A stretch of DNA of 64,000 bases from Candidatus Krumholzibacteriota bacterium (GCA_016933255.1 JAFGBF010000008.1:7772-71771), one strand, 5' to 3'; counted from the first letter of the stretch, positions 3,390 to 47,503 are shown. Translations and numbers: made by a program. Notes: generated by a model from the letters alone, not told the origin.

Positions 3390-4841
3390 GTGTTCTGTCA
3401 AATGTCGGGGTCGGTACCCGGTTCTGTCAATGATCCGGGATTCGGCCCTGTTTTGCAGACCGGACAATCAAAGCGGGAGATGCCGGTGTCGTTTATCAAG
3501 GATGCTTCATATACATTCGCGACAAAATTAACTTTACTCATAATCGGTATTTTCAGCAGTATCATTTCGGTAAGGATCCTTGGGGCGGAAGGGAAGGGGC
3601 TCTTCACTCTGGGCATTATCTCCGCGTCGGTCATCTTCAATCTTGCCAATCTGGGAGTAGGAACGGGAGCGGGGTATTATCTGGGGCGGAAAAAGGTCGA
3701 GCTGGAGGACCTTGCGGGAAACTGGCTGAGCCTCTCGGTAATGATAGGTGCGGTGGTGACTGTCCTCTCACTGGCCGTTATGCCGCTAATCGCCGGATCG
3801 ATCCTGCCGGCTGTCCCCCTGAAGCTGATAATCACGGGATTATTATCGATTCCCTTTATGATATTGACCTTTAATTTCCAGATGCTCAGCAAGGCGAATT
3901 CCGATTTTTTATCTTATAATATTGCTGAATTGATACAGCGGCTTTCTTTCGTTGTATTTTTCCCTCTTTTTATACTCCTTATTTCGTGCGACAGAGTCTT
4001 TCTGGCTGTGGTGATCTATATTGTCTCAACGATGATATCAGCTTTTTTTCTGCTGCTTAGATGGTCCAGGGTGGTGAGGCTGCGTTTCAGGCTGGACAGG
4101 GGACTCGCCGGTTCGGTCGTGCGGTTCGGGATTAAAGGTCATCTCTCGAATTTCCTGGGATTTCTGAATCTGCGGCTTGACATCCTCCTGATCAACTATT
4201 TTATAGGTCCGGCTGCAGTCGGGTTTTATTCCATATCTGTGATGATCGCAGAAAGAATGTGGTACCTGCCTGACGCGCTTGGAATAGCTCTTTACCCGAA
4301 AGTCGCCCATTACGATGACGACAGATCCAATAGAGCGACCGCTGCAGTATGCAGGCAGACTATGATCCTTATCCTATTATCCATAGTCGTTGTTCTTGTT
4401 GCCGGTAAAACCGTTATCAGGCTGTTTTACACCGATTCGTTCCTCGCTGCGCTCATCCCTCTTTTTCTGCTTCTTCCCGGAGTCCTTTCAGCGGGGATAA
4501 CAAGGGTCGTTTCCAGCGATCTGCTTGCGAGGGGGCACCCAGGGGTCAATATGGCAGCAGGAGGGGCAGCACTTGCCGTAAATATCATTTCAAACATAAT
4601 TTTGATACCGAGGATCGGGATCAGCGGAGCCGCAGTCTCGACATCCATTTCATATTTTGTGCAGGTTGTCGTCACTCTGATATCATTCAAAAAGATAACG
4701 AGGGTCGCGGCGGCATCGCTGCTGATTCCCAGATATGAGGATCTGAGACTTTTTGCGGGGGCTTTGAACCGCATCATCAGCTCATTCAGGCGAGGAAGCA
4801 GTACGCGTGAAGATGAAGGGGATACAGGCGGCGGCAAATGA
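3390..4841 (+). CDS. Wzx-like polysaccharide flippase (MOP superfamily)
   Basis: 483 aa, about 12 predicted TM segments. The N-terminal 'SVRILGAEGKGLF' motif is typical of Wzx/polysaccharide biosynthesis proteins. ATG 3481 (MPVSFIKD...) is an alternative start. Confidence 0.65.
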   Translation: MFCQMSGSVPGSVNDPGFGPVLQTGQSKREMPVSFIKDASYTFATKLTLLIIGIFSSIISVRILGAEGKGLFTLGIISASVIFNLANLGVGTGAGYYLGRKKVELEDLAGNWLSLSVMIGAVVTVLSLAVMPLIAGSILPAVPLKLIITGLLSIPFMILTFNFQMLSKANSDFLSYNIAELIQRLSFVVFFPLFILLISCDRVFLAVVIYIVSTMISAFFLLLRWSRVVRLRFRLDRGLAGSVVRFGIKGHLSNFLGFLNLRLDILLINYFIGPAAVGFYSISVMIAERMWYLPDALGIALYPKVAHYDDDRSNRATAAVCRQTMILILLSIVVVLVAGKTVIRLFYTDSFLAALIPLFLLLPGVLSAGITRVVSSDLLARGHPGVNMAAGGAALAVNIISNIILIPRIGISGAAVSTSISYFVQVVVTLISFKKITRVAAASLLIPRYEDLRLFAGALNRIISSFRRGSSTREDEGDTGGGK

Positions 4842-31745: not shown

Positions 31746-32024
31746 TCAGCTTTCTTTTGCTGCCTTTTTTCCCTTCTTCTCTTTCTTTTTTTCTACAGTC
31801 GGTGAATCCGATTTCTTTTCAGCCAGTTCTTTCTTTTTGTAATCCTCTTCCCTGTAATCAGTCTTGTAGAATCCCGAGCCTTTCAGAATATGACCGACCG
31901 GATATATGACCCTATAGACAGTTCCCCTGCATTTCGGGCATCGTTTTCGCGGCGGATCGGATATCTTCTGTTCCAGCTCGAATTCATGTTCGCATTTGTC
32001 ACACGCGTAGTGGTATGTCGGCAT
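31746..32024 (-). CDS. FmdB family zinc-ribbon protein
   Basis: 'MPTYHYACDKCEHEFE...CPKC' has the CxxC...CxxC arrangement with a 'KGSGFYKTDY' box. A K/E-rich tail follows. Confidence 0.7.
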   Translation of the reverse strand: MPTYHYACDKCEHEFELEQKISDPPRKRCPKCRGTVYRVIYPVGHILKGSGFYKTDYREEDYKKKELAEKKSDSPTVEKKKEKKGKKAAKES

Positions 32025-33522
32025 CTATCTGCTCCTTTTCCTTTTCAAGGATGATATTTTTGGTCGCGACTATTACTCCGAACAAAAGCCATACAAAATA
32101 GATATAGATATAGTTCCTGAGATATTCGATCTTGATCTGATCGAAAAGAAACATCACGAGCACGACATTCAGTACCTTGCTGAACGCGTCCGGAAAAGGG
32201 GATGACATTATTGAGGCTTTGAACCTTATCATCGATGCTTTCATCAGTCTGAACAGGAAGAAGAGAAAAGAGGACAGCCCGAGGATCCCCGTGATATTAA
32301 ATATAAAAAGATAAATGCTATGGGGATACAACGGGATATCCATTTCTTTTTTGTCGATATCCCAGAAAGGACCGTGTCCTATCAGGGGACTTTGCATACC
32401 TCTCTTGAAATATGTTGTCCAGGCGGGGGCCCGGTTTACCGGGATACCGCCTTCCAATCGTGTGGCAAAGACTCTTGTGAAGAGTGATCCTGACACGGTA
32501 TATCTCGACACGACCGACTCCAGGACTATGATCAGAGCTATGGCCGAAATGGTCAAAGAGACGAACTTTACGAAATTGAAATCTTTTCTGAAGATGAATG
32601 CCATATATGAATACCCGAAAAATAGGGTAAAGAAGGCTCCTCTCGTGATCGTAGTAAACATCATGGCAAGATCGAAAATAAGGATCGTTGTATATACTAT
32701 CTTCAAGGCCAGGCGTTTTTCTCTTATCAGCATGAAAAAGATAATCGGGATGTTGAGCGCAAAAAATTCGGCATTGAGTTCGAAATCATGAAAAACTCCC
32801 CCCATCCTCAGCCCTTTCATGACGAGGCGCGTCTTGTGGCTGGTATATAACCACATCGGTACAAGTGTACGTCCTGGGAAGAGCGTTTCGATCAATGTGA
32901 ATGTCATGGCCAGGGCCGCTGTAATTACCATCACCCTCGCCATGGTATGGAGTTTTTTTTCGCTATCGAGAAAGTTGATGACAAGATAGAAGAGGAGAAT
33001 AGCTCCTCCAATGTTAACCGTGTGGTAGGCTGCAGCCCTGTAAGCCTCGGCCGATGTTTCGAGGCCGTAAAAAGAGAGGAGATAAGATGCCATGATAAAG
33101 ATGATCGGCAGGTTGAAGGCCCTGTCGGAGCGAAAACGCTCGATCTTTGCCGAGACTCTGATCATAAATATCAGAAATATGATTACTGTCAGTACAAGAT
33201 TAGAGTTGCCGATGGCTATCCCGAAAGGGAATGGATACATGATCGCGATAAAGACAAGCGCGTTAAAGGCGGAGAAATTCCACAGTACATATACAAGGGC
33301 CATTCCCACGATAGCCTGGATCGTTCTTTTATTCGGTGCGAAAATCTGGCTCCCGGCAACGATCCCTATCACGATCATAAGAAACGCGTTCCTGACCGAA
33401 GGGAAAGACAAGGAGCTTGCCGCTCTTTTTACTTTCGATTCCTTTTTGCGCGAGATATCTTCAAATCTGTCCATAATAAGCGATCCAAGCAAGATTAATA
33501 CCCGGCGGGGACGTGCCCGCAC
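31999..33522 (-). CDS. O-antigen ligase / O-antigen polymerase-like membrane protein
   Basis: 507 aa, at least 10 TM, with a large periplasmic loop containing 'HSIYL..' (Wzy_C-like). The call is by topology and family resemblance only. Confidence 0.55.
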   Translation of the reverse strand: MRARPRRVLILLGSLIMDRFEDISRKKESKVKRAASSLSFPSVRNAFLMIVIGIVAGSQIFAPNKRTIQAIVGMALVYVLWNFSAFNALVFIAIMYPFPFGIAIGNSNLVLTVIIFLIFMIRVSAKIERFRSDRAFNLPIIFIMASYLLSFYGLETSAEAYRAAAYHTVNIGGAILLFYLVINFLDSEKKLHTMARVMVITAALAMTFTLIETLFPGRTLVPMWLYTSHKTRLVMKGLRMGGVFHDFELNAEFFALNIPIIFFMLIREKRLALKIVYTTILIFDLAMMFTTITRGAFFTLFFGYSYMAFIFRKDFNFVKFVSLTISAIALIIVLESVVSRYTVSGSLFTRVFATRLEGGIPVNRAPAWTTYFKRGMQSPLIGHGPFWDIDKKEMDIPLYPHSIYLFIFNITGILGLSSFLFFLFRLMKASMIRFKASIMSSPFPDAFSKVLNVVLVMFLFDQIKIEYLRNYIYIYFVWLLFGVIVATKNIILEKEKEQIDADIPLRV

Positions 33523-34981: not shown

Positions 34982-36241
34982 ATGGCGATCTTCGAGGTGG
35001 TTGGCGGAAAGAGGCTGAGCGGTGAGATCGAGCTCAGCGGGGCAAAGAATGCGGCTCTTCCGATATTGTTCGGTTCCCTGTTAAGCGATGGCGTGGTCGA
35101 TCTTCGAAATGTCCCTACCGGTATGGAAGACATCAAGGTAGCCATCCAGGTGATCCGGCGGCTCGGCGCAGATGTGAAGGTCAGCGGGAATTCGGTGACT
35201 ATCGACTCCTCTACGATCAAAGAACCGGTCATACCATACGAACTGGCTTCCAGGATCAGATACTCACTTCTTCTTCTTGGAGTTTTTCTCGCAAGGTTCG
35301 GGAAAGTTGAACTTCCATTTCCCGGAGGCTGCGATATCGGGACGCGAAAATTCGACCTGCATATCAAGGGCTTGAGAGATCTGGGGGCAGAAATCGAAGT
35401 CGGAAAAGATAGTATTACTGGAAGTGTCTCTTCTTTCAGGGGGGCTGATGTGGAATTTTATCTCCCGACGACTTCGGGCACGGAGAACGTGATGCTGGCC
35501 GCTTGCCTGGCGAGAGGCAAGACAAGTATCCGAAATGCCAATACACGCCCCGAGATCATGGACTTTGCTCATTTTCTGGAAGGTATGGGCGCCAGGATAA
35601 AGATGTCGAATCGACTGATAGAGATCAACGGTGTCAAGAATCTCAAAGGTACCAGCCACAGGATCATGAGCGGCGGTGACGAGGCGATGAGCTATATGCT
35701 GGCTGCGGGCATTACCGGGGGAGAGGTCATGATAAGGGACTATGACCTTTCATACCTTAGAGTAGATACGCAGTATCTGCGTGAAGCGGGACTCGAGGTG
35801 TTCGAATGGGGTGGATCAGTATATGTCTCAGGGCGAAAAGGCCTTCGTCCATTCCATATTTTTACGGCGCCGTACCCCGGGGTCAACTCCGACCTTCAGC
35901 CGCTGTTTGCGGCTCTTGCATTGGGGGCACCCGGAGAATCGACGATCACTGATCAGCGTTTTACGGACAGGTTCGACTATGTAGATCAGCTGAAGGCTTT
36001 TGGGGGGAATATTGACCATTATGGAAATTGCGCTGTCATCAGGGGCGGCAAAAAGCTTAAGGGAGCGAGCGTAAGGGCTACAGACCTCAGAGGCGGAGTC
36101 TCGGAGATACTTGCAGGGATGATTTCCGAGGGGAAGACGGTCATCGACAACATCTATCAGATCGACAGAGGTTATGAGAGGATCGAACGCAAGCTTTCGG
36201 CGCTCGGCGCGGATATCAAAAGGAAAAAACAGGCGAAATAG
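34982..36241 (+). CDS. murA: UDP-N-acetylglucosamine 1-carboxyvinyltransferase MurA
   Basis: 'GGKRLSGEIELSGAKNAALPIL' and the active-site Cys region 'PGGCDIGTRKFDLH'. Confidence 0.9.
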   Translation: MAIFEVVGGKRLSGEIELSGAKNAALPILFGSLLSDGVVDLRNVPTGMEDIKVAIQVIRRLGADVKVSGNSVTIDSSTIKEPVIPYELASRIRYSLLLLGVFLARFGKVELPFPGGCDIGTRKFDLHIKGLRDLGAEIEVGKDSITGSVSSFRGADVEFYLPTTSGTENVMLAACLARGKTSIRNANTRPEIMDFAHFLEGMGARIKMSNRLIEINGVKNLKGTSHRIMSGGDEAMSYMLAAGITGGEVMIRDYDLSYLRVDTQYLREAGLEVFEWGGSVYVSGRKGLRPFHIFTAPYPGVNSDLQPLFAALALGAPGESTITDQRFTDRFDYVDQLKAFGGNIDHYGNCAVIRGGKKLKGASVRATDLRGGVSEILAGMISEGKTVIDNIYQIDRGYERIERKLSALGADIKRKKQAK

Positions 36242-36297
36242 ACTGACAAGGAATCCGGGCAGGACCATGGACTTTTTTCATTCACTTTCCTGACAGT

Positions 36298-37278
36298 TCA
36301 GTCTCCGTGTTTCGGATCGTCGGTAAGCAGAAGTGAATCGATGACCGTGCTGGTCAACAACCTTCCTATTTTCATCTTTCCACACCAGACTTCGTTTATG
36401 ATCCGGTCTCCCGTAGCTATAGTAAAATGTATGGGGTCGTCGAAATTAGCCCGGTCGATCGTTATCTCGTTTACGAAATCGTAGTCGTAGACATTTACTC
36501 CGAGTTCGAAGAGATCTTTCCTGAAGCGGTTCATATCAGCGGTCAATCCGTAATCGGCTACACGGGCCTGCATCTCTATATGATGCGGTACGATAATAAA
36601 AGTGATTTCCGTTCCATTCTTTTTTGCATGTCTGACGACCCGTTTCATCTCGTCATAAAGGGTCTCGGGGTAACTGAATTTTCCGTAATGATCGTTTGCC
36701 TTGACCTGAATGTTCCAGTCCCAGAACTTTTCTCTGGTCATAGGGGGAGTTGTGGAGACAGCTGGCGAATTCTGAATATAAGCCTTGGTAACGAGCCAGC
36801 ATGTTTCAGCTACACTTCGATCAAATATATAGAATAGAGGGTTATTCAGGATTCCTTCGGCGCCTTTTACCCTGTCGGCATAGGCAAACTTGTTGAACAT
36901 ATTGAAATTCAGGATAAAAAACACCTTGTCCGGCTGTTTTATCCTGGAGGCGAACCAGTACAATTCAAAAGACTCGTTTAACTTGAGGGCATTCGAATTT
37001 AAGAGAAAATAGTCATCACCTGTGATTTTTTCTATTTGAGCAATCTTCAGATTGTAGCTTCTCGAATCACCAATGGTCAGATTGTCGCTGGGATCGTGCT
37101 TGTACTGGATCATATTGAACATCAATCGGTTGAGCGGCTTTGCATTTCTCAGCTTCACTCTGTCCGGAATCAGAGACGAGACGTTGAAGTAGTTGAAAGG
37201 GTCTATGACCATTACAATCCCTGCCCAGAGCAGGAAAGGGATCAAGAATATAGATGCTTTGATCAGAAATTTCTTCAT
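36298..37278 (-). CDS. Membrane-anchored SGNH-like acyltransferase partner (DltD/AlgJ/PatB-like)
   Basis: N-terminal TM anchor. A 'LTIGDSRSY' GDS(x) block I motif. It sits 10 nt downstream of the MBOAT gene on the same strand. Confidence 0.45.
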   Translation of the reverse strand: MKKFLIKASIFLIPFLLWAGIVMVIDPFNYFNVSSLIPDRVKLRNAKPLNRLMFNMIQYKHDPSDNLTIGDSRSYNLKIAQIEKITGDDYFLLNSNALKLNESFELYWFASRIKQPDKVFFILNFNMFNKFAYADRVKGAEGILNNPLFYIFDRSVAETCWLVTKAYIQNSPAVSTTPPMTREKFWDWNIQVKANDHYGKFSYPETLYDEMKRVVRHAKKNGTEITFIIVPHHIEMQARVADYGLTADMNRFRKDLFELGVNVYDYDFVNEITIDRANFDDPIHFTIATGDRIINEVWCGKMKIGRLLTSTVIDSLLLTDDPKHGD

Positions 37279-37287
37279 ATCGATCGC

Positions 37288-38757
37288 CTAGAACTGAAAA
37301 TAGATAAAGTTTTGTGCCTTGTTGTAAGGCGAAAAGAACAGGATTAATATTATTATCGCATAATAGATCGTCCATCTTACCAACAAAGGCCTTGCGTCCA
37401 CAAGTTTCCAGAAATCGTACCGTGTGTCGATTATATCGTATGCGAGAAGGACGCCTATGAAGACGAAACTCTGGACGAGGTCGACTGTTTTCAGACCCAT
37501 TCCTCTGAACGAGAGTCCTATCGCGCTGACATCGAGGTACTGTCCCGGGTCTGAGACCAGCGAGTTCATTAATATCCCTACGTCATGGAGTGAATTGGCC
37601 CGGAAAAGGACCCATGCAGCGCATACGAGGAAAAAGGTCCAGACCATAGCGATGCCCTTGAAAAAGGTCGCCCCGGTATTGATACTAAGCGCGCGGGCAA
37701 TCGAGCGCGCAGGCGGACCAAGTATGTTTTCGGTCACGAGAAAAAGGCCGTGAAGTGCTCCCCAGCATAGAAAAGTCCAGTTCGCGCCGTGCCACAATCC
37801 GCTCACGACGAAAGTAGCCATAAGGTTGTAATACCACTTTGGTCTTGATACCCTGTTTCCTCCGAGCGGGATGTAAAGGTAGTCCCTGAACCAGGTCGAA
37901 AGGGAGATATGCCACCTTTTCCAGAACTCCGATATTGATCTTGAGAAATAAGGCTGCCTGAAATTCTCCATCAACTCGAATCCCATGATCCGTGCCGAAC
38001 CGATGGCAATATCCGAATAACCTGAGAAATCACAGTAGATCTGGAATGCAAAGAAAAAAGTAGCGACAAGGACTGGGGTGCCGGGAAAGGCGGATGGTTC
38101 ATTATAGACGGAATTGACGAGGACGGCCAGACGGTCAGCGATGACGATTTTTTTAAAGAAGCCCCAGAGCATGAGTTTAAGTCCCGAAGTGGCCCTTGAA
38201 TAGCTGAACCCGTGTTTTTCGAAGAACTGCGGCAGGAGCCTGCCCGACCTTTCTATCGGTCCGGCCACGAGCTGAGGGAAAAAGGAGACGTAGACTGCGA
38301 AATATCCGAGATGTTTTTGTACGGGGGTTTCTCCCCTGTAGACGTCGATCGTGTAACTGAGTGTCTGAAAGGTATAGAAAGAGATCCCGACCGGCAGGAG
38401 TACGCGGAACGTTGGGACGGAATAGAGGATATTGAATCGGTCGAAAAGAATCCGGGCGTTATCGTTGAAAAAATTGAAATACTTGAAACCGAAGAGCAGA
38501 CCCAGGTTTACAAGGAGGCTGAGGACCAGATATGTCTTCCTGGTTTTTTCCTTTTCCGAACGGGACATTCCCATGGCAGTGAGATACGCAACGACTGTGG
38601 AGATCAGGATGAGAAAGATGTATTCCATCTTCCAGCACATGTAAAAATAATAGCTGGTGACAAGCAGCAGCGCCCATCTCCACCTGTGAGGAAGGAGGAA
38701 GTAGAGGCACACGACAACAGGAAAGAATACAAGAAAATGAATGGAATTAAAGAGCAT
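37288..38757 (-). CDS. MBOAT family membrane-bound O-acyltransferase (AlgI/DltB/PatA-like)
   Basis: 489 aa, polytopic. The conserved MBOAT His region 'VSGLWHGANWTF' and 'RWHISLSTWFRDYLYIPLGGNR' are present. Confidence 0.8.
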   Translation of the reverse strand: MLFNSIHFLVFFPVVVCLYFLLPHRWRWALLLVTSYYFYMCWKMEYIFLILISTVVAYLTAMGMSRSEKEKTRKTYLVLSLLVNLGLLFGFKYFNFFNDNARILFDRFNILYSVPTFRVLLPVGISFYTFQTLSYTIDVYRGETPVQKHLGYFAVYVSFFPQLVAGPIERSGRLLPQFFEKHGFSYSRATSGLKLMLWGFFKKIVIADRLAVLVNSVYNEPSAFPGTPVLVATFFFAFQIYCDFSGYSDIAIGSARIMGFELMENFRQPYFSRSISEFWKRWHISLSTWFRDYLYIPLGGNRVSRPKWYYNLMATFVVSGLWHGANWTFLCWGALHGLFLVTENILGPPARSIARALSINTGATFFKGIAMVWTFFLVCAAWVLFRANSLHDVGILMNSLVSDPGQYLDVSAIGLSFRGMGLKTVDLVQSFVFIGVLLAYDIIDTRYDFWKLVDARPLLVRWTIYYAIIILILFFSPYNKAQNFIYFQF

Positions 38758-38970
38758 ATAAGAATCCCAGCCTTAGAGCATATATTACACGATCCACCCT
38801 CTGGAGGGGGTGGACTACTAAAGATGATACCATATTGCGCCTGATCTGTCCAATAGTTGACATTACCACTTTTCCACAGATCCATATTCTTCCCTTGCAT
38901 TTATTCCCGATGGGTATAAATATGGGAAACGGTCAGGATAAGGAAATCCCGACTGAAAGCTGAAGGCGAT

Positions 38971-39891
38971 ATGGGCAAGAGAGTACCGAGGATAATCGAG
39001 AAGATCAAAGCTGCGACCGGTGCGTGCGTGATCCCCGGCTGTTCGCTGGCTGAATATACTACCTACAGGGTAGGGGGGGCTGCTGAGTATCTTGTAGATC
39101 CCGTCAATATGGAAGAAGCCTCCTGGATAATCCAGAATGCCTGGCGCGAAGGTATCCCCGTAACGATTCTGGGGGCCGGTTCGAATGTGATCGCTCCCGA
39201 CGAAGGGATAGAGGGGATAACATTGATCCTCAACGGCAGCAATGTTCCTCCCGTATTCTATGACAACGGTATATTACAGGTCGAAGCGGGGGTCAGCCTG
39301 ATCGAGCTGGCAAAGCTGGCCGCAATGGAGGGGTACTCGGGTTTTGAACCGATCGCCGGGATACCGGGAACGGTAGGCGGAGCGATCATGATGAATGCGG
39401 GGGGTAATGGAAATATTTCGGATATTCTTACAAAAGTCGAGGCGCTGACTTCTTCGGGGCGAAGGATCCAGCTGACTAACAGGGAGATGGCGTTCGGATA
39501 CCGGAAGAGTATTTTTCGAGGATCTGGATGGCTGATACTGAATGCGGAATTCAAGCTGGGCCGCGGAAAAAAAGAGCAGCTCATGAAAGATTTTGAAAGG
39601 ATAAATGAGGAGAGACGGATCCAATATCCGATGGACCTTCCAAGCGCGGGGAGCGTCTTCAAACGTCCGCCTGGCGACTATCCAGGGAGACTGATCGAGG
39701 AGGCTGGATGCAAGGGGATGAATGTGGGTGATGCGGTTGTAAGCAGCCGCCACGCGAATTTCATTCTTAACAGGGGCAGCGCTACTTCTGCGGATATTCT
39801 CGGCCTCGTCAGTGAAATAAGAAAGATGGTCTATAGCCGGTCCGGTGTTTACCTCGAACTTGAGCAGATACTACTCGCCAGCCGCCCCTGA
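38971..39891 (+). CDS. murB: UDP-N-acetylenolpyruvoylglucosamine reductase MurB
   Basis: FAD-binding 'TTYRVGGAAEYL', then 'ILGAGSNV' and 'AGGNGNISD'. Confidence 0.85.
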   Translation: MGKRVPRIIEKIKAATGACVIPGCSLAEYTTYRVGGAAEYLVDPVNMEEASWIIQNAWREGIPVTILGAGSNVIAPDEGIEGITLILNGSNVPPVFYDNGILQVEAGVSLIELAKLAAMEGYSGFEPIAGIPGTVGGAIMMNAGGNGNISDILTKVEALTSSGRRIQLTNREMAFGYRKSIFRGSGWLILNAEFKLGRGKKEQLMKDFERINEERRIQYPMDLPSAGSVFKRPPGDYPGRLIEEAGCKGMNVGDAVVSSRHANFILNRGSATSADILGLVSEIRKMVYSRSGVYLELEQILLASRP

Positions 39892-39899
39892 GCCGATAA

Positions 39900-41219
39900 T
39901 CACAGATCATCGCGGCGGCGAAGAATATATCTTTTCCACGCCTCTACTGCTCCATCGCGGTAACCGATGAATTCTTCCCGTTTAGGGATGAACAGGTCGC
40001 GTAGCGGCAGCTTCATTTCTCTTTTGAATATTATTACCAGAATGACCGAAAGGACTGTATATGAGAGGCTCGTCGATATACCGGCGCCGATTATGCCGTA
40101 GCGGGGGATCATATAGATATTGGCAGCAAGGTTTACAAATATCCCGAACAGAGATGCCGCGACACTCAGCCCCAGCCTGTTTTTTGAGGCAAAATCGACG
40201 GAAAGGAATTTATAGACGGGGAATATGACGATGCCCCAGAGGATCGAGAACAGGGCAGGTGAGACAGCATCATACTCTTTACCGTACATCAGGACGACCA
40301 GATACTTTGCGGTAAGCAATATCGCCACTCCAAGGACGATCATAATAAAGAAATTGTTCCTGCACACCTTTGCTGTAAATCTCGATGATCCTTTATCCAT
40401 AGCCATAAGCGTAGGGAAGAGCAGCGCAGCGATAGCGTTGGGGATATACCATAGTCTTTCTGAGATATTGACGGCGATCGAGTAGAAACCGACATCGCTG
40501 GCAGTGAGATAGTATTTAATAAGGAAGAGGTCGAGACGGTAATTTATAAAATTAAAGATAAGGAGCAGATATGCCCTTCCTCCCATACTGAACATCGGCC
40601 CGGCCATTGAGAAGTTTATCCGCCAGCCTTTTCTCATATCACCGGTAAAAAAGACAAAACTCAGGATACTTGCTATTATCGCAGAGAGGGTGAATGACAA
40701 GATCACTTCTTTCAGACCCCCGCCCCGAATCAAAAGCAGGATTACGACGAGGATGAGATAGCTCATGTTCATAAAGAGTTTTGCGATATTACTTTCTCTC
40801 ACCCTCAGCAGGGCGAAAAGGAAGCGAAGGAAATAGTTATGGAAGAGAATAAAGGGAGCGGCTATCAACCCCGTTATCATCAACGGTTTTGGTATTTCGG
40901 TCCAGATATTCGGGATATTCGGATATATGATGTATAACAGGATCGCAAAAGAGGAGCCGACAAAAAGCGATACAAGGGTGATAAAAGCGAGGATGTCAGA
41001 ATTCGCGTAGGTTCTCTTTCCCGTGAAATATGTAATGGCTGTCCCCAGCCCAAAATGCCCGAATGATGCGATCATAGAAGCGGCCATGACTACAAGGCCG
41101 TAATATCCGCGGATTTCCGGGCCCAGATGTCTTGCAACTATGATACTCGATATTACAGCCAGAAAAGTCGAGAAGACATTGGCCGCAAAGATCTCACTTG
41201 TCTTGCGGATAAAACTGAT
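39900..41219 (-). CDS. Wzx-like polysaccharide flippase. The conserved N-terminus extends upstream of the first canonical start (41087). ATC 41219 is proposed as the start, with AGGAGG 7 nt upstream
   Basis: ORF track 39900..41087 begins at 'MAASMIASFG'. The same frame stays open back to 41288, with no in-frame ATG/GTG/TTG in that stretch. It encodes '...ISFIRKTSEIFAANVFSTFLAVISSIIVARHLGPEIRGYYGLVV', which aligns to the N-terminus of the other flippase in this window (MPVSFIKDASYTF...ISVRILGAEGKGLFTL). Confidence 0.55.
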   Translation of the reverse strand: MSFIRKTSEIFAANVFSTFLAVISSIIVARHLGPEIRGYYGLVVMAASMIASFGHFGLGTAITYFTGKRTYANSDILAFITLVSLFVGSSFAILLYIIYPNIPNIWTEIPKPLMITGLIAAPFILFHNYFLRFLFALLRVRESNIAKLFMNMSYLILVVILLLIRGGGLKEVILSFTLSAIIASILSFVFFTGDMRKGWRINFSMAGPMFSMGGRAYLLLIFNFINYRLDLFLIKYYLTASDVGFYSIAVNISERLWYIPNAIAALLFPTLMAMDKGSSRFTAKVCRNNFFIMIVLGVAILLTAKYLVVLMYGKEYDAVSPALFSILWGIVIFPVYKFLSVDFASKNRLGLSVAASLFGIFVNLAANIYMIPRYGIIGAGISTSLSYTVLSVILVIIFKREMKLPLRDLFIPKREEFIGYRDGAVEAWKRYILRRRDDL

Positions 41220-41245
41220 TTCGAGACCTCCTGAGATATGAGAGC

Positions 41246-43825
41246 CTATTCTATCACAATAATTCCCATCTCGACACCCTGATAGATATCATCATCGGTG
41301 AAAAGATCGGAGAGGGTGTAATTAGGATACTGCGTTCTGTGCGACAGTCTGACAGCTACCTCGTATTTACCTGCTTTAATATCTTCCGGTATCGGGATCG
41401 CCACCTTTTCAGCGACTACCCTGCCGATAGGCCATTTGTCAGGAGGAAACAGTCCATTGAAGGGAATGAAACCGGACCTGAACCTGTACCGCTTATCATC
41501 TCTGGCTTCGAGGATCTTTCTGTAGATCTTTCCATATGACTTTCTGAAGAGGCGGCCTTTGTCGAACTGAGTGTTGAATCTTACATATGCATAGTATCCT
41601 TTTGGATCACAACCTGAAACAGCGATCCATTCTATCGTCAATTCAAGGATATCACCACGCTTGACGACCTGCCGGCAGATCACATCTTTTATATATATCC
41701 CTTCTTCACCCGATTCTTTTAGAAGAAGCGATTGATCGGCTGTTATCCTTGGCCACTCGGACTCTTCAGTGGCTGACCGCTCTTTTTCCCTGAAATCGCT
41801 GCCTAGTCTGTAGATAGAAAGTGATCTGTGCGAGTAAAGTTTCTCGAATCCGGACGCGCCTGACAGGAGCGAATCGGTACGCGTGAAAGACTCGATGTCC
41901 GGTTTCCAGAAAACTGGCTGGACCGAATCGGGAATGCGGCCGTTAATAACGATATATTCAGAACGATATTTTTCCATCAGGCCTGCGATATCTCCGGGCG
42001 TGCCTGCAAACTGGAATATTTCCCTGCTGTCGAGTATTCTTTCCAGCGCTGTCGAGTCGTTGGGGATCGAATGCTGATCGAGGGTGCAGATGACAAACTG
42101 ATCGGCAAAGGCGGGGATCGAATAGCTTGTTACCGGATCTGAAACGATAATGCTGCCCGGCGGGATCAGATTATTGAGGGCATCATACATATCATTCAGA
42201 TCATATGCGGTCTCCTCGCCGCGGTCTCTGTAAGTGAAGCTTGCCGGATAACTGTAAAATGTAGATCCGAGGACAGCTGTGATGAAGATCCACCCGGTGA
42301 TCAGGCCTGTTCTGGAGATATTGCCGCTTATCCCCCTGGTTCTGTTCCATAACGATACTAAAAGGACCGAAGCGATTATCGACGACGGTACCGCGAATTC
42401 CATGCGAAGAAGCAGGTATGAGATCTTCTTCATCAAAAAGGGAACCCAGAGAGGATTGAATACAAGTATAAGTGTTGCAATTACTCCGCAAAGGAGCAGT
42501 CTGAGCGACAGGTCTTCAGCAGATTTTTTCCAAAGGACGAATATCGCTGCAATCGAGATAATGAAGAGCGAACCGGCCGACTGATAAAAGACGACAGGAT
42601 TAAGTACCGCCAGCCGTTCTGTCAGGTGAAGAAGACCCTGTGTATGCGTGTGAAGGATATTTGCCGGGGCATAATCGCGGATATACCTCAGAAGCAGGTA
42701 GGGCAGGTTTATCCCTATAACTGCTGCTGCAGCGGCGGGGATATTTACCATCCATAGCCGAGACCTGTCTTTTATGGATCTCATGAAGGATGCGGATACT
42801 GCGAATATAAAGATCAGGAATCCTGATATCAGAAGATGCCCGATATGTGTTCCCGTACCGCAGAAAGAGGCTATCGCCAGCAATCCAAGATAGAATATGC
42901 TTCCAGTCTTAAGGTATAGAAGAAGTGCCGAGATAAAGATGACTGTGAATATCTTTCCGAACGGAAAACTGTAAGCGACCGTGATCAGCTGATGGCCGGT
43001 CAGCCCGCCGTGGTAAAAAAACAGAAAGATAAGAGATGACAGTAACCCTATAGCCTGGGATCGAAAGAGAAGAAGGCAGGAGCAATAAAGGGAAAGCAGG
43101 ATGAATATCGCACCGGTGATCGATATCAACGGCCATATCGGCAGCGTGTCGATCCTCCCTGTGAGAAGGTTGATCGTCCCCCACATCGCGTGATAAAGCC
43201 CTTTCCTGATATCGCGGGTCATCTCCCCGCCATTGCTGTAGAGAAACTCGGAGGGAAAGGCCTCATGTGACCTGGAGACCGTCCTGATATAGGCGATCCC
43301 ATCCTGAGAATCGCCGGTATAGAGGATCGGGTCTTCGTAATAGATCAGAAGAGCAGTTATCGATATGAATATTATCACCATCAGGATGGCGACCGAGACG
43401 GGGGTATATACATTAGGAGGTGTTTTATATTCAGAAGAACCTGTTTCCCCGCCGCCGATCGACTGACGAATCACCAGGACAAGAAACCCGGTCAGCGGAA
43501 TAAAGATCCCGATCCACTTTATATCCCACCTGAATATCGCAAAAATGATCAGATAGAGATAAAAGACAGCTGTTCCTGTCAGGAAAGAAAAGAGGATCCT
43601 GAAAAAGACCGATATTTTAGCGAAGAAGGCCCTGAATATGATATCTCCTGGAATCATCACCATTGTAAGGAAAAAGAAGATGAAAAGGATTCTGTGGAAA
43701 GGGAATGAAGGAGCGGTCCGGAGCGCGGCAAGGTGCAGGATTATGATCAGGCCGGTGATCATCGAACTGGCTGATATTCGGCCGAGGGGGGGGATTCTTT
43801 TGTCTGTACCCTGTGTTGCGTTCAT
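41246..43825 (-). CDS. Large polytopic membrane protein (~13 TM) with a ~350-aa C-terminal extracytoplasmic domain. Candidate GT-C-like glycosyltransferase or polymerase
   Basis: ORF 41246..43873. The second ATG (43825, MNATQG...) has a GGGAGA SD 6 nt upstream. No recognisable catalytic motif could be assigned by eye. Confidence 0.5.
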   Translation of the reverse strand: MNATQGTDKRIPPLGRISASSMITGLIIILHLAALRTAPSFPFHRILFIFFFLTMVMIPGDIIFRAFFAKISVFFRILFSFLTGTAVFYLYLIIFAIFRWDIKWIGIFIPLTGFLVLVIRQSIGGGETGSSEYKTPPNVYTPVSVAILMVIIFISITALLIYYEDPILYTGDSQDGIAYIRTVSRSHEAFPSEFLYSNGGEMTRDIRKGLYHAMWGTINLLTGRIDTLPIWPLISITGAIFILLSLYCSCLLLFRSQAIGLLSSLIFLFFYHGGLTGHQLITVAYSFPFGKIFTVIFISALLLYLKTGSIFYLGLLAIASFCGTGTHIGHLLISGFLIFIFAVSASFMRSIKDRSRLWMVNIPAAAAAVIGINLPYLLLRYIRDYAPANILHTHTQGLLHLTERLAVLNPVVFYQSAGSLFIISIAAIFVLWKKSAEDLSLRLLLCGVIATLILVFNPLWVPFLMKKISYLLLRMEFAVPSSIIASVLLVSLWNRTRGISGNISRTGLITGWIFITAVLGSTFYSYPASFTYRDRGEETAYDLNDMYDALNNLIPPGSIIVSDPVTSYSIPAFADQFVICTLDQHSIPNDSTALERILDSREIFQFAGTPGDIAGLMEKYRSEYIVINGRIPDSVQPVFWKPDIESFTRTDSLLSGASGFEKLYSHRSLSIYRLGSDFREKERSATEESEWPRITADQSLLLKESGEEGIYIKDVICRQVVKRGDILELTIEWIAVSGCDPKGYYAYVRFNTQFDKGRLFRKSYGKIYRKILEARDDKRYRFRSGFIPFNGLFPPDKWPIGRVVAEKVAIPIPEDIKAGKYEVAVRLSHRTQYPNYTLSDLFTDDDIYQGVEMGIIVIE

Positions 43826-44124
43826 TCTGGATCTCCCGTTGATACTCAATCTCCTGTAACATGCTGCAGGCATACCGGTTCAGCAGTCAGTTCCGGCAAG
43901 CATATAACTTGCCACAAGATCTTGCTATCATTAAATCGTACTTTGCCGGGGGTTTCTTAAAAACAGGTGATGCGGGATCCCGCGATTTTTATTGTCACTA
44001 CGGCGCATGAAGGTCGTTATTGACTCTGGAGATGATATAGTCTTAGTATATCCGGTGGTCCAGCGCCCCGACTGTCAATAGTCGAAGAATACCGTTTGAC
44101 AAAGCCAGTGAAAGGTTACGATCG

Positions 44125-45381
44125 ATGAGGATATTGATTTGCTATCCGTGGCTCAGTCTCGGCGGTGCTCCTAACACCGCCATCTCCAATGCCAAGGGAC
44201 TGAAGGAAATCGGGCATGAGGTCGTCTTTTTTACAAAGACGGGAGGGATGTATGAGGAAAAGCTGCGAAAGCTTGAGATACCTGTAGTCTCCGCTCCCCA
44301 TGATCCGTTTCTTCCCCACCTGCACCATCTCAACGGAAAAGCTTTCAGGATACTGGAAAAGGCGATCGATGAATATTCTATCGATATCATCCACTCCTAT
44401 CATCATAGTCCCTACTTCCTTGCCCAGTTTGCCGCGTTGAGAAAAAATATCCCCCTTGTATTTACCGCAGTCTGGTTTGTTGAAGGTCCGGTATTTCCCG
44501 CATATCCCGGAAGTCTGATTTTTGTAGCCAGAGAATTCCTTGACGACGTCAAAAAAAGAATAAAAGGAAACCCCGCGGAGATGGCTGTGATACCGAACAG
44601 GATCGATCTGAATGAATATCATCCCGGTATAGATTTTTCCCGGTTTCAAAAGGAGAAACAGCTTCCTGATGCCGGATGGAAGATCGCTTTTATGAGCAGG
44701 GTGGACAGGATAAAATTCGGTTCACTCCGCCATGCCGTTCAGGCTGTCGAACTGATGGCGACGAAGGGAAGGGATGTCACTCTGGCTATCGCCGGTGATG
44801 GGGGATGCTTTGAAGATTTAAAGCAGACCGTCGATGAGGTCAATATCAGGGCGGGGAGAGAAATCGTCATTCTGCTCGGGCAGATAATCGAAACCCCGCA
44901 GTTTCTTTCCTGGGCCGATATCGTTCTTGGAATAGGCCGGTGCACATGGGAAGGCATGGCCTGCGGAAAACCTGCGATAGTCGTCGGAGAGAACGGGATC
45001 GCCGGTATTGCCGAACCTGCAGAGACAGAGATGCTGCAGTACTACAATTTTGCCGGTAGAAATATCAAAGAACCGGTCGACCCGCAGGTTCTGGCAGATA
45101 CGATCGAAGAGCTGATGACCGACGAGACTCACTACAGGGAACTTTCCGAATATTCCAGAAAGTATGTTATCGATAATTACGATTACAAGGCAGGAGCTGT
45201 CCGTGTCGAAGAGATCTACCGGAAGGAACTCCTGTCCGATCCGCTCACCCGCATGCAGAAGATACGGGTCTTTTGCAACGCCCTGATCTTCGGGTACGGA
45301 TACCGTTTGTACATTGCATGGAGGATAAAGCTTCGAGGGCTGTTAGGGCGGGGAAAACCGGACGACAAAGTGGTGCGCTGA
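44125..45381 (+). CDS. GT4 family glycosyltransferase
   Basis: 'MRILICYPWLSLGGAPNTAISNAKGL' is a GT-B N-terminus. The C-terminal 'GIGRCTWEGMACGKPAIVVGENG' matches the GT4 EX7E region. Confidence 0.7.
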   Translation: MRILICYPWLSLGGAPNTAISNAKGLKEIGHEVVFFTKTGGMYEEKLRKLEIPVVSAPHDPFLPHLHHLNGKAFRILEKAIDEYSIDIIHSYHHSPYFLAQFAALRKNIPLVFTAVWFVEGPVFPAYPGSLIFVAREFLDDVKKRIKGNPAEMAVIPNRIDLNEYHPGIDFSRFQKEKQLPDAGWKIAFMSRVDRIKFGSLRHAVQAVELMATKGRDVTLAIAGDGGCFEDLKQTVDEVNIRAGREIVILLGQIIETPQFLSWADIVLGIGRCTWEGMACGKPAIVVGENGIAGIAEPAETEMLQYYNFAGRNIKEPVDPQVLADTIEELMTDETHYRELSEYSRKYVIDNYDYKAGAVRVEEIYRKELLSDPLTRMQKIRVFCNALIFGYGYRLYIAWRIKLRGLLGRGKPDDKVVR

Positions 45382-45526
45382 TATAGATCCTTTCCTGAAG
45401 CAGGCACCTGCATCTCCGGAAGGGGCAGAACAAAGTTGACAAAACATCCTTTCCCTGTGTTAAACTCCGCAAAATATTACGAATACAGTCGTTTCTTCAT
45501 CGGATCGTTTCCAGCAAGGAGGAGAG

Positions 45527-47503
45527 ATGGAGCAGAGCAAAGGGACAGGCAGGCTTCCGGAGAACGCCTACAAAGTCCTTAAACCGGGCGAGGAGTATAC
45601 TCCCTATATTCCGGCGGGCAGGGTCATCCCTGAAATAACCGTACGATCGGTAGTGACAGGACTTATTATGGCTGTCCTCTTTACCGGCGCGGCCGCATAC
45701 CTCGGGCTGAAGATAGGCCAGGTATTCGAGGCAGCTATTCCCATAGCGATCCTCGCTATCGGGATGGCCGGCTGGTTCAGCAGGCGGAGTACGATCCTGG
45801 AGAATGTGATCATCCAGTCGATCGGATCGGCATCGGGAGTCGTAGTGGCGGGGATGATATTTACATTGCCTGCGATATTCATTCTAGGCCTGGAGCTTAG
45901 ATTCTATCAGACTTTTGGGGCTGCGCTTCTCGGCGGTTTTCTAGGGATACTTTTTCTCATCCCCCTGAGGCGATATTTTGTAAAGGAACAGCACGGCTTC
46001 CTGCCTTTTCCTGAAGGCACGGCTATCACAGAAGTGCTTGTGACCGGCGAAAGCGGAGGCGATCAGGCGAAGGTCCTTGTGATAGCGGCGGTTATCGGCG
46101 GGCTCTATGATTTCTGCATCGCCACCTTCGGCCTGTGGAGCGAGGTCATATCTACGAGAGTGATAGGGCCCCTCTCGGTCGTTGCCGACAAGGCCAAGCT
46201 TGTGGTCAAGGTCAATGCCGGGGCGGCGGTCGTCGGGCTCGGGTATATCATAGGACTTAGATACGGAACGATAATCGCGGCCGGAAGTTTCCTTTCATGG
46301 CTCGTATTCATACCTGCAGTCTGGTTTTTCGGCCAGAACCTTGATGTTCCTGTCGGAAACGCCACGATGCTGATCTCCGATATGACAGCTGAAGAGATAT
46401 TCACAAACTATGTCCGCCATATCGGTATCGGCGGTATCGCCGTAGCCGGGATGATAGGAATCCTCAAATCCTCAAAGATCATCCTCTCTTCTTTCAGCGT
46501 AGGTTTCAGGGAGATGTTTTCCGGCAAGAGCAAGAGCGAGAGTGGGACTGAACGGACCGACAGGGATATCAATATGTCGATAGTGATCGGCGGGCTTATT
46601 ATAACCCTGCTGGTCGTTTTCCTTTTCTTCGGATTCCTGGTTGTAGATTCATGGAAGATAGCTACGATAGCACTGATCGTCGTGGCGGTCATCACCTTCC
46701 TCTTCACTACGGTTGCCGCGAGAGCGATAGCTATCGTCGGGATGAATCCGGTATCGGGAATGACGCTTATGACGCTTATACTTTCGAGCCTTGTACTGGT
46801 CAAGGCCGGTCTTTCCGGGCCGGCTGGGATGGTATCGGCCCTGATTATAGGCGGCGTAGTCTGTACTGCTCTTTCAACCGCCGGTGCGTTCATCAGCGAT
46901 CTGAAGGTTGGGTACTGGATCGGTTCGACCCCGAAGAAGCAGGAGATGTTCAAGTTTATCGGTATCGCAGCAGCGGCTGCCAGTGTGACCGGAGTGATCC
47001 TTCTTCTAAACAAGACTTATGGATTTTCAGGTGAGGGATCTCTGGCCGCGCCTCAGGCAAACGCGATGGCTGCAGTTATCCAGACTCTAATGTCCGATGC
47101 CGCCGCGCCCTGGGGGCTGTATATCGCCGGAGGATTCATGGCGATCATACTCGAGCTGCTCAAGATCTCCCCGCTGGCATTCGCTCTCGGCATGTACCTT
47201 CCTATACATCTGAATACGCCGATCCTTATCGGCGGGCTTGTCGCTCACTTTGTGCAGAAGAGCAGCAGGAACGAGGAAGTATCCTCTAAGAGGAAGGAAC
47301 GCGGGACGCTTATCGCCTCGGGGTTTATAGCGGGCGGAGCTTTGATGGGTATAGTGAGCGCGTTGATCGCCTGGCCCGAATGGGATCAGATCCTTAATAC
47401 CGGGTTCGGCGAGACTTATTTCGGCGAAGTATTGAGCGTCTTCATGTTCGCCGGCCTTTGCTTTTACCTCTATTTCGATTCGAAACGGGGTGCGGCAGAG
47501 TAA
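45527..47503 (+). CDS. OPT family oligopeptide transporter
   Basis: 658 aa, about 16 TM, after an AGGAGG SD. The N-terminus 'YKVLKPGEEYTPYIPAGRVIPEITVRSVVTG' is OPT-like. Confidence 0.75.
   Translation: MEQSKGTGRLPENAYKVLKPGEEYTPYIPAGRVIPEITVRSVVTGLIMAVLFTGAAAYLGLKIGQVFEAAIPIAILAIGMAGWFSRRSTILENVIIQSIGSASGVVVAGMIFTLPAIFILGLELRFYQTFGAALLGGFLGILFLIPLRRYFVKEQHGFLPFPEGTAITEVLVTGESGGDQAKVLVIAAVIGGLYDFCIATFGLWSEVISTRVIGPLSVVADKAKLVVKVNAGAAVVGLGYIIGLRYGTIIAAGSFLSWLVFIPAVWFFGQNLDVPVGNATMLISDMTAEEIFTNYVRHIGIGGIAVAGMIGILKSSKIILSSFSVGFREMFSGKSKSESGTERTDRDINMSIVIGGLIITLLVVFLFFGFLVVDSWKIATIALIVVAVITFLFTTVAARAIAIVGMNPVSGMTLMTLILSSLVLVKAGLSGPAGMVSALIIGGVVCTALSTAGAFISDLKVGYWIGSTPKKQEMFKFIGIAAAAASVTGVILLLNKTYGFSGEGSLAAPQANAMAAVIQTLMSDAAAPWGLYIAGGFMAIILELLKISPLAFALGMYLPIHLNTPILIGGLVAHFVQKSSRNEEVSSKRKERGTLIASGFIAGGALMGIVSALIAWPEWDQILNTGFGETYFGEVLSVFMFAGLCFYLYFDSKRGAAE

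Follow-up and report, generated by a model that had tools for sequence, protein, structure and literature searches.

Results

The flippase gene and its neighbours

On the minus strand of the window (the whole 64,000-nt stretch of Candidatus Krumholzibacteriota DNA analysed here), a gene for a flippase of the MOP/PST (Wzx-like) type runs from 41219 to 39900, with 439 codons followed by a TGA stop at 39902–39900; its extent is drawn from Pfam, AlphaFold2, Foldseek and the lengths of its orthologues. Upstream on the same strand (41246–43873) lies the gene of a polytopic membrane protein of ~860 residues, to which AlphaFold2 (pLDDT 86.6) and Foldseek give a GT-C glycosyltransferase fold. The top Foldseek matches are STT3, PglB, DPY19 and AftA (probability 1.0, E about 1e-7 to 1e-8), no Pfam or NCBIfam family matches this protein, and its 58 homologues are mostly from Krumholzibacteria. 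The TAG stop of this gene (41248–41246) is 26 nt before the ATC codon at which we place the flippase start. A GT-C homologue was detected 5′ of the flippase in 13 of 17 orthologous loci, and for the remaining four (L004, L006, L009 and L028) only 176–951 nt of upstream sequence are available. The GT-C gene is a conserved partner of the flippase gene, and the two probably belong to the same operon.

On the other side, murB (38971–39891, plus strand; Pfam MurB_C and FAD_binding_4) is convergent with the flippase gene. It is found just 3′ of the flippase on the opposite strand in 15/17 orthologous loci, and was not detected in L008 and L029, both of which run out soon after the flippase. A murA gene of the EPSP_synthase family (34982–36241, plus strand) is also present, and in most orthologous loci murA is directly beside murB. 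In the window, an MBOAT gene and a 326-aa ORF separate the two.

Fold and family of the flippase

From the profile searches, the flippase matches the Polysacc_synt_3/Polysacc_synt pair, with 55.3 bits for PF13440 (cut-off 23) and 31 bits for PF01943 (cut-off 28.2). The AlphaFold2 model (pLDDT 89.5, pTM 0.85) has about 12 membrane helices by a rough count and a C-terminal helix, with residues 2–54 being helical within the MOP fold. Foldseek matched it to MurJ and WzxE with query-normalised TM-scores of 0.73–0.76 (0.76 for MurJ 7wax/6nc6) and, for WzxE 9g9p/9g9n, target-normalised TM-scores of 0.78–0.79, the alignments covering 415–454 columns for the 439-residue query. These results agree with the MOP transporter fold of two six-helix bundles, TM1 included. 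Sequence and model together indicate a MOP-superfamily flippase of 439 residues and roughly 12 helices, with its TM1 encoded 5′ of any canonical start codon.

An orthologue of the lipid II flippase MurJ was considered and rejected (TIGR01695, 14.7 bits vs a cut-off of 235.55), and the Pfam profile search reported no MurJ match. The HfsF equivalog was rejected as well (24.5 bits vs a cut-off of 700), and no named NCBIfam flippase equivalog fits the protein. Its length is closer to that of WzxE (409–418 residues solved) than to that of MurJ (466–522), the MurJ architecture having 14 helices with an extra TM13–14. Flipping of a lipid-linked glycan is the predicted function, in a context of the upstream GT-C-fold partner and the adjacent murB and murA.

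A probable AUC start codon in the flippase frame

The flippase frame is closed upstream by a TGA at 41291–41289 and is open from 41288. None of its 24 codons from 41288 to 41219 is ATG, GTG or TTG, nor is any of those from 41216 to 41090, so that the ATG at 41087–41085 is the first canonical start in this frame and is the false start chosen by mechanical ORF finders. For the same gene, NCBI lists a protein (P0001, 391 aa, MIASFG...) that begins four codons further on, at the ATG 41075–41073. No Shine-Dalgarno sequence precedes 41087; a scan of the flippase ORF lists only the site of 41219 and a weak internal CTG at 40568. At the former, AGGAGG occupies 41232–41227, the anti-Shine-Dalgarno match extending to AGGAGGT (41226), and a 7-nt spacer (TCTCGAA) leads to an ATC at 41219–41217. 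This ATC is in frame, since 41219 and 41087 are 132 nt, or 44 codons, apart. An earlier note had described this open frame, its lack of canonical codons before 41087 and the exact 7-nt spacing, and every coordinate holds; the in-frame stop that it feared having miscounted between 41219 and 41087 is not there. When the rest of the window was scanned, no other gene needed an AUH start (H = U, C, A), meaning that this kind of start is specific to the flippase.

Conservation of the start among orthologous loci

The comparison covered 17 independent orthologous loci of 41–80% amino-acid identity, found in NCBI, ENA, JGI and Logan assemblies, the source organisms being uncultured MAGs. At the aligned start codon, the window and its 17 orthologues have ATC in 11 cases, ATA in four and ATT in three, and ATG, GTG or TTG in none of the 18. 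A GGAGG, GAGG or GGAG core lies 6–8 nt 5′ of the ATH in every locus, and positions −14 to −7 form the sole conserved upstream block (0.84 bits, vs 0.25 bits further upstream). The combination of Shine-Dalgarno sequence, ATH codon and peptide recurs in all 17 orthologous loci, which makes it more than a chance arrangement. The ATH-started orthologues are all 437–450 residues long.

The surrounding codons leave few other choices. In L001, L002, L004, L005 and L008 an in-frame stop lies just 2–6 codons 5′ of the ATH, so there is no room for another start, and in 15 of the 18 loci the stretch from the upstream stop to the ATH holds no canonical codon in frame; in the other three, such codons fall at the non-conserved positions −6, −17/−51 and −28. 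Downstream, the first canonical codon occurs at a differing place in each locus, between +9 and +44 codons, and hence cannot be a conserved start. The earlier note had allowed that orthologues might truly start at the position of 41087; none does, and the peptide upstream of their first canonical codon is conserved. The non-canonical start thus appears, by this comparison, to be a conserved trait of the whole orthologous clade, mostly Krumholzibacteriota, and the public annotations of the clade would all have a wrong N-terminus from which TM1 is left off.

Coding character of the first 44 codons

The 44 codons upstream of 41087 (41219–41088, minus strand) encode ISFIRKTSEIFAANVFSTFLAVISSIIVARHLGPEIRGYYGLVV, comprising TM1 and an R-x-L-G-P-E-x-R-G motif. 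Over codons 2–44 of the 18 loci, the first, second and third codon positions carry 1.16, 1.54 and 0.38 bits of information, respectively. Between the window and L026, the codon differences in this segment are 19 synonymous vs 6 amino-acid-changing, and of the 11 pairs compared, nine have at least as many synonymous differences as amino-acid changes. This periodicity and synonymous excess indicate that codons 2–44 are translated. The segment is helical in the AlphaFold2 model, with pLDDT of 72–94.

A second flippase in the window (3480–4841, plus strand) has a normal ATG start (MPVSFIKD...) and served as a comparison sequence. The two proteins are 31% identical overall (BLASTP, E = 6e-60), with residue 1 of the query meeting residue 3 of the paralogue and no gap in the N-terminal part, as the earlier note had proposed in aligning the two N-termini residue for residue.

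Ancestry and the third base

As an outgroup, we used 196 full-length, more distant flippases with the N-terminal R-x-L-G motif as an anchor. Their start residue falls exactly on the aligned position in 51 of them and within −2 to +3 of it in 98, with N-termini such as MSFIKKS, MSFVKDV and MSFLRKS (pattern MSF[ILV][KR]...). In a neighbour-joining tree, the members of the AUH clade cluster together as one group. Judged from these sequences, an ancestral ATG changed to ATH at the base of the clade, an ancient event that has been retained, and the codon then drifted among ATC, ATA and ATT, never going back to ATG, GTG or TTG. By parsimony, the third base has changed six or more times among C, A and T and never to G, while G makes up 26% of the third positions in codons 2–44. 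Once shared ancestry is allowed for (six switches; 0/18 vs 26%), the sequences give a modest statistical case for selection against G at the third base of the start. The third bases of the start (C 11, A 4, T 3) are distributed in a way similar to those of internal Ile codons in these genes (ATC 442, ATA 298, ATT 200), and for this reason their distribution alone cannot separate drift among equivalent weak starts from selection on an Ile codon.

Alternative explanations

The earlier note had offered three explanations, namely initiation at AUC, a recent ATG-to-ATC mutation and a base-call error, and chose none. An error of base calling or assembly, or a recent mutation in a decaying gene, would concern this genome only. 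It is true that the codon is a single base away from ATG and that one assembly is on record for the exact sequence (P0001, one contig); however, the same codon class occurs in the 17 independent loci, from different samples, assemblies and pipelines, which rules out a base-call error, and its presence at 41–80% identity likewise rules out a recent mutation. L026, the nearest relative at 80% identity, shares the ATC and has GGAGG 7 nt before it. The flippase gene is in other respects intact and evolves under purifying selection. We give this explanation almost no weight. It is also very unlikely that translation begins at the canonical ATG 41087 or 41075 and that the upstream frame is untranslated or a relic. 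Although the ATG at 41087 is in frame and the two ATGs are the ones chosen by mechanical ORF calling and by the NCBI annotation, respectively, such a start is at odds with the protein-like conservation of the upstream 44 codons, with the shifting place of the first canonical codon among orthologues and with the lack of a Shine-Dalgarno sequence before 41087. It would also delete TM1, as the earlier note had pointed out, together with the RxLGPExRG motif, from a fold that matches MurJ/WzxE over nearly its full length, whereas many outgroup flippases have their Met aligned at the AUH position.

Two further explanations involve the GT-C gene. By termination-reinitiation, ribosomes finishing the GT-C gene would reinitiate at the AUH, which would still be the start; flippase output would be tied to the translation of its partner, and the weak codon would be tolerated since initiation would rely on upstream translation instead of newly bound 30S subunits. 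Consistent with this, the GT-C stop and the start are 22–28 nt apart in the window and its close relatives L026, L027 and L001; in L003 there is a 13-nt overlap between the start and an inserted upstream ORF of 196 codons; a 53-aa ORF with a weak Hexapep match ends 2 nt before the start in L031; and the flippase is 3′ of the GT-C gene wherever the upstream flank suffices. However, L002, L033, L032, L031 and L030 have 56–204 nt between the GT-C stop and the AUH, the upstream neighbour varies (the GT-C gene, the inserted ORF of L031, or asparagine synthase), and all 18 loci keep the strong, correctly spaced Shine-Dalgarno sequence that fresh initiation needs; we therefore hold reinitiation to be improbable, although the flippase start may depend to some degree on translation of the gene before it. 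A programmed −1 frameshift or stop-codon read-through could instead fuse the GT-C protein to the flippase with no separate start, because the flippase frame, open to 41288, overlaps the last 14 GT-C codons and a −1 shift would enter it. Yet no slippery heptamer is visible in 41288–41246, no Rfam element was found within 38000–45000, and fusion is impossible in the five loci with an in-frame stop 2–6 codons before the ATH, as well as in others where the intergenic gap reaches 204 nt. The likelihood of such a fusion is negligible.

Taken together, the best explanation as a whole, and one that we consider highly probable from the sequence comparisons, is that the flippase gene begins at the AUC of 41219–41217, a Shine-Dalgarno-driven AUH start conserved across the clade. 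This is initiation at AUC as envisaged in the earlier note, now supported by 17 orthologous loci.

Discussion

In the proposed mechanism, the Shine-Dalgarno sequence would position the 30S subunit at the AUC, and the initiator fMet-tRNA would pair with it despite a third-position mismatch. The initiating Met would probably be removed afterwards, since the second residue is invariably a small one (S, A, G or T). A weak codon combined with a strong Shine-Dalgarno sequence would hold flippase synthesis low and responsive to IF3 proofreading, and thereby to growth state; by analogy with known cases, both effects are probable. Relative to AUG, AUH starts yield roughly 0.1–3% in E. coli reporters and about 10–30% in S. 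aureus contexts with an extended Shine-Dalgarno sequence, and conserved AUH starts that attenuate translation have precedents (10.1101/063800, PMC2830850, PMC4447247, PMC13009471, PMC5499595). A plausible purpose would be to keep the flippase scarce, possibly below its GT-C glycosyltransferase partner.

With such a start, the flippase joins the known AUH-start class of infC, pcnB, Deinococcus dnaA, ccpN and ebpA. The infC gene for IF3 (AUU/AUA/AUC) likewise shows a conserved AUH start in one gene family that annotation pipelines often misplace (PMC2830850, PMC5499595). Its weak start has a demonstrated purpose, autoregulation by its own product, whereas any IF3 dependence of the flippase would serve as an input signal, with no feedback loop involved; moreover, the infC start spans most bacteria, while that of the flippase is confined to one flippase clade. 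Also comparable are the ATC of Deinococcus dnaA and the CTG of Deinococcus-Thermus rpsL, lineage-specific conserved non-canonical starts of ordinary genes (PMC2830850). For Deinococcus dnaA, too, the public N-termini are heterogeneous and wrong, and re-annotation at the ATC restores a conserved N-terminus (PMC2830850); a small second residue followed by Met removal is a further likeness (PMC2830850). The Deinococcus case differs in gene family and phylum, and was proven by N-terminal proteomics, whereas the flippase start is known from comparative sequence alone.

A weak AUH codon with a strong or extended Shine-Dalgarno sequence, conserved among relatives, is also found in S. aureus ccpN (AUA) and cvfC1 (AUU), E. 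faecalis ebpA (ATT) and E. coli pcnB (AUU), all of them attenuated in expression relative to AUG (PMC4447247, PMC13009471). In ebpA the annotated ATG, 120 bp downstream, is wrong, much like the flippase annotation (PMC4447247, PMC13009471). These four are backed by reporter or mutational proof, the flippase by sequence comparison; on the other hand, they are conserved for the most part inside one genus or family, whereas the flippase AUH is kept, as all three AUH codons, in orthologues down to about 41% amino-acid identity. Among flippases, the protein shares with Wzx/WzxE and MurJ the Polysacc_synt_3 and Polysacc_synt matches, a superposable model and TM1 within the fold, and in the literature searched we found no report of a non-canonical start for wzx or murJ. 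Genes of Wzx/Wzy-type pathways are likewise reported to have initiation-region features that hold basal expression very low, the device being a rare-codon cluster at the 5′ end of wzy (PMC12004945); in the flippase gene the corresponding device would be a non-canonical start codon.

More tentatively, and with a likelihood that we put well below even, the AUH start may be the regulatory device of an undescribed two-gene periplasmic glycosylation module, an unannotated GT-C-fold transferase with a MOP flippase, conserved beside murB/murA in Krumholzibacteriota, with flippase synthesis made dependent on IF3 and growth state. If so, export of the lipid-linked glycan would be linked to translational capacity and kept low relative to the transferase, and the exported glycan might be MurNAc-containing or peptidoglycan-related. 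Reversion to AUG would then be deleterious, with depletion of the undecaprenyl-phosphate pool or membrane toxicity as possible causes.

A probable ATC start codon in a Wzx-like flippase gene

From a codon-by-codon listing of the translated minus strand (39800-41500), it is evident that the reading frame of the Wzx-like flippase gene (39900-41219, minus strand) is closed by a TGA at 41291-41289 and stays open from 41288. Between 41288 and 41090 there is no in-frame ATG, GTG or TTG, the ATG at 41087 being the earliest canonical start. A Shine-Dalgarno sequence, AGGAGG, occupies 41232-41227 (with 41226, AGGAGGT), and 7 nt separate it from an in-frame ATC at 41219-41217. The stop codon of the upstream gene (TAG, 41248-41246) lies on the same strand in another frame. 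The sequence, its translation and the codon listing thus bear out everything that the earlier note had said about the frame, the start codons and the Shine-Dalgarno sequence. When counted from the ATC, the flippase has 439 residues with Pfam matches to Polysacc_synt_3 and Polysacc_synt, and its residue 1 aligns to residue 3 of the paralogous flippase in the window (3480-4841, plus strand, MPVSFIKD..., 31% identity, E 6e-60), which uses ATG. For this paralogue, a mechanical open reading frame begins at GTG 3390 (3390-4841, plus strand), and the family-typical N-terminus begins at ATG 3480, which is probably its true start.

The window was also scanned for Shine-Dalgarno sequences followed by ATH (H being T, C or A) or CTG in frame with open reading frames of 150 codons or more. 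The flippase gene alone was found to combine a strong Shine-Dalgarno sequence and an ATH codon with the lack of any canonical codon upstream or for 44 codons downstream. A genome-wide habit of AUH initiation was therefore rejected, since the other candidates in the window all have a canonical start, either 1-6 codons away or at a better site. As for local RNA signals, the mean unpaired probability from -15 to +6 was 0.47 for the AUH loci vs 0.44 for a set of 18 window genes with canonical starts, no hairpin common to the AUH loci was seen around the start, and an Rfam search of 38000-45000 returned nothing at gathering thresholds.

Conservation of the start codon and alternative explanations

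Orthologous loci were drawn from a genome collection, a metagenome collection and exact-protein look-ups, giving 17 independent loci in which the start region is present. Two others were left out of the count, namely L007, which starts at query residue 12 at a contig edge, and L010, whose start-region sequence is identical to that of L001; the flanking DNA examined in L035 and L036, two contigs with homologues of the upstream gene, held no flippase. With the window included, the codon aligned to 41219 is ATC in 11 loci, ATA in 4 and ATT in 3, and is never ATG, GTG or TTG. A Shine-Dalgarno core (GGAGG, GAGG or GGAG) lies 6-8 nt 5′ of the ATH codon in 18/18 loci, and the protein counted from this codon is 437-450 residues long in every one of them. 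The first canonical codon downstream occurs anywhere from +9 to +44, its position varying by locus, and an in-frame stop is found 2-6 codons 5′ of the ATH in L001, L002, L004, L005 and L008. In L026, the closest relative at 80% identity, the ATC likewise follows a GGAGG after a spacer of 7 nt. Residue 2 is Ser, Ala, Gly or Thr in all 18 loci, so the initiating methionine is probably removed.

The earlier note had offered initiation at AUC, a recent ATG-to-ATC mutation or a base-call error to account for the missing start codon. A base-call error is refuted by the presence of ATC, ATA or ATT at the aligned codon in 17 independent orthologous loci, and a recent mutation is incompatible with an ATH codon kept across a clade of 18 loci. 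Initiation at AUC is instead supported by the DNA of the orthologues (ATH in 18/18 loci, window included) and by the Shine-Dalgarno spacing, and on these comparative grounds we consider the ATC to be very probably the initiation site, and its conservation to be established.

Translation might also depend on the upstream gene. A frameshift or read-through fusion with it was rejected because of the stop codons and the long gaps in the orthologous loci. Tight reinitiation after the upstream gene is possible in some genomes, since its stop codon lies only 22-28 nt before the ATH codon in four loci and an inserted open reading frame in L003 overlaps the start; however, the corresponding gaps of 56-204 nt in five other loci rule it out as the general mechanism, and also weaken strict translational coupling as a general need.

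The public annotations examined misplace the N-terminus

A homologue search placed the flippase gene of the window in a Candidatus Krumholzibacteriota metagenome-assembled genome. Its own NCBI entry (P0001) has 391 rather than 439 residues and begins with MIASFG, corresponding to the ATG at 41075. When the 22 closest homologues (41-100% identity) were aligned, nearly every annotated start was found to differ, falling inside the first transmembrane helix, TM1 (for example, MARQLGPE, MLGPE, MTGIIIAR and MILGVVSG). Only P0004 and P0008 include the conserved ISF[IV]KR peptide, which they reach through non-homologous, spurious upstream GTG or ATG codons. All examined public entries (P0001-P0022) hence carry a wrong N-terminus, most of them being 9-48 residues short within TM1, so that this helix is partly or wholly missing. 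Such scatter is typical of gene callers whose codon list omits the true start codon, and structure predictions, topology calls and family models based on these clade entries carry the same N-terminal error.

The upstream stretch is coding and probably belongs to the flippase fold

In the start-anchored alignment, codons 2-44 exhibit the periodicity of coding DNA, the information content being 1.16 bits at the first codon position, 1.54 at the second and 0.38 at the third. In the region 5′ of the start it is 0.25 bits, and only the Shine-Dalgarno block from -14 to -7 stands out, at 0.84 bits. Between close pairs, synonymous codon differences outnumber amino-acid-changing ones by 19 vs 6 (window and L026) and 19 vs 9 (L008 and L033). 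The peptides encoded within 41219-41088 include SFIR and KTSEIFAANVFSTFLAVISSIIVAR, the predicted N-terminus being (M)SFIRK. Judged by these alignments, the stretch upstream of the first canonical ATG is translated.

The AlphaFold2 model of the flippase (alignment A1) has a pLDDT of 89.5 and a pTM of 0.85, with residues 2-54 predicted to be helical. In Foldseek, the 439-residue model was matched to solved structures of two MOP flippases, MurJ and WzxE, over 415-454 aligned columns (query-normalised TM-scores of 0.73-0.76). Since the model aligns to them at near full length, TM1 appears to be part of the flippase fold, and the protein is, by sequence and by predicted fold, a MOP/PST flippase. 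The NCBIfam named flippase equivalogs MurJ (14.7 bits vs a cut-off of 235.55), HfsF, TuaB and SpoVB were rejected, with scores far under the cut-offs. An 865-residue protein in the representative library (P0230) matches the flippase at full length through residues 434-850, meaning that a flippase domain is fused there to an N-terminal half.

Origin and retention of the ATH codon

A scan of 1.84 billion representative proteins returned thousands of more distant flippases, for which the R-x-L-G motif served as an anchor. Among 196 full-length, motif-bearing sequences, 51 start exactly at the ATH position and 98 in the interval from -2 to +3 residues around it. Many of these N-termini are MSFIKKS, MSFVKDV, MSFLRKS or MNFIKKS, corresponding to the peptide of the window with Met replacing the ATC. 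The ATH-start sequences group together in a neighbour-joining tree as a single, long-stemmed clade, apart from the outgroups (~25-31% identity). These sequences are most simply explained if ATG changed to ATH once, in the ancestor of the clade, and ATH was kept from then on.

By parsimony, the third base of the start codon must have switched between C, A and T at least six times on this tree, without any switch to G. In codons 2-44, G accounts for 26% of third positions, and its absence from the start codon (0/18) has p ~0.004 only if the loci are independent. Because shared ancestry weakens this value, selection against G at the start codon is likely, not proven.

A putative GT-C partner and its neighbourhood

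Where the flanking DNA suffices, the flippase gene sits 3′ of a same-strand gene for a polytopic membrane protein of ~860 residues (41246-43873, minus strand, in the window). Neither Pfam nor NCBIfam matches this protein, and its 58 homologues, mostly from Krumholzibacteria, are all labelled hypothetical. Its AlphaFold2 model (pLDDT 86.6) was matched by Foldseek to the oligosaccharyltransferases STT3 and PglB and to DPY19 and AftA, with probability 1.0, E ~1e-7 to 1e-8 and TM-scores of 0.4-0.5 against the GT-C structures. Near the first loop, D172 and S173 are invariant and D175 is nearly so. From the model, the partner and its mainly krumholzibacterial homologues appear to form a hitherto undescribed GT-C family. 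Because GT-C enzymes use their lipid-linked sugars on the membrane's outer face, it would make functional sense for a GT-C gene to have its own flippase gene next to it.

The flippase gene converges on murB, and mostly also on murA, and this arrangement of GT-C gene, flippase, murB and murA is conserved (34982-43873 in the window; loci L001-L034), with an identity of 64-73% for murA between loci. Two minus-strand open reading frames, an MBOAT gene (37288-38757) and a 326-codon frame with no family match (36298-37278), separate murB from murA in the window.

One sub-lineage (L003, L006, L029 and L031) has an extra open reading frame inserted between these GT-C and flippase genes, which in L031 is called as a 53-residue gene with a weak Hexapep match. 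In L003 (~3413-4013), a 196-codon open frame ending in GIPAKVISRGGSSSHS and a stop contains the flippase Shine-Dalgarno sequence and overlaps the ATC by 13 nt; the nucleotides TTTCGCGGGGAGGCT around this overlap are conserved among L003, L006 and L029. Beyond the GT-C gene, on the side away from the flippase gene, the window carries a GT4 glycosyltransferase gene (44125-45381) and an OPT-family oligopeptide transporter gene (45527-47503), both on the plus strand (44125-47503). This pair is also near the GT-C homologue in L036 (1-2638), and a GT4 gene adjoins the GT-C homologue in L026 and L027. The gene at 31999-33522 (minus strand) encodes 507 residues that include a Wzy_C (O-antigen ligase/polymerase) domain, and the window is rich in such envelope-glycan genes, among them both flippases and several glycosyltransferases such as the GT2 at 2087-3376.

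Precedents, possible mechanism and significance

In E. coli reporters, AUA, AUC and AUU support ~0.1-3% of the expression from AUG, and the product begins with Met (10.1101/063800). The AUA of ccpN and the AUU of cvfC1 in S. aureus are conserved, are preceded by extended Shine-Dalgarno sequences and reach ~10-30% of AUG in a medium-dependent manner (PMC13009471). IF3 autoregulation rests on the AUU of infC (PMC5499595), and the ATT start of E. faecalis ebpA, 120 bp 5′ of the annotated ATG, attenuates expression (PMC4447247). A conserved ATC start in Deinococcus dnaA has been proven by N-terminal proteomics (PMC2830850), and expression-limiting 5′-end signals have been reported for wzy genes of related pathways (PMC12004945). 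By analogy, the Shine-Dalgarno sequence would place the 30S subunit and the initiator tRNA would read AUH through a wobble mismatch; IF3 would discriminate against such initiation complexes, and flippase output may be low and dependent on the growth state.

The flippase start displays 4/4 of the sequence-level features of conserved AUH-start genes, and on this evidence the gene belongs to that known class. Searches on wzx or flippase with start codon, and on Krumholzibacteriota with flippase, returned no earlier report, making this, within the literature searched, the first such start found for a lipid-linked-glycan flippase. The short list of families with a conserved start other than AUG, GUG or UUG gains a well-supported natural example, and the presence of AUC, AUA and AUU over a deep radiation makes it useful for studying the reasons for which weak starts are retained. 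Discordant annotated N-termini, a conserved upstream peptide, a stop just 5′ of the codon and a correctly spaced Shine-Dalgarno sequence can serve as markers of non-canonical starts without experiments. The flippase gene also draws attention to an uncharacterised, conserved pair of putative GT-C transferase and flippase that adjoins murA and murB in an uncultured phylum. The finding matters for annotation.
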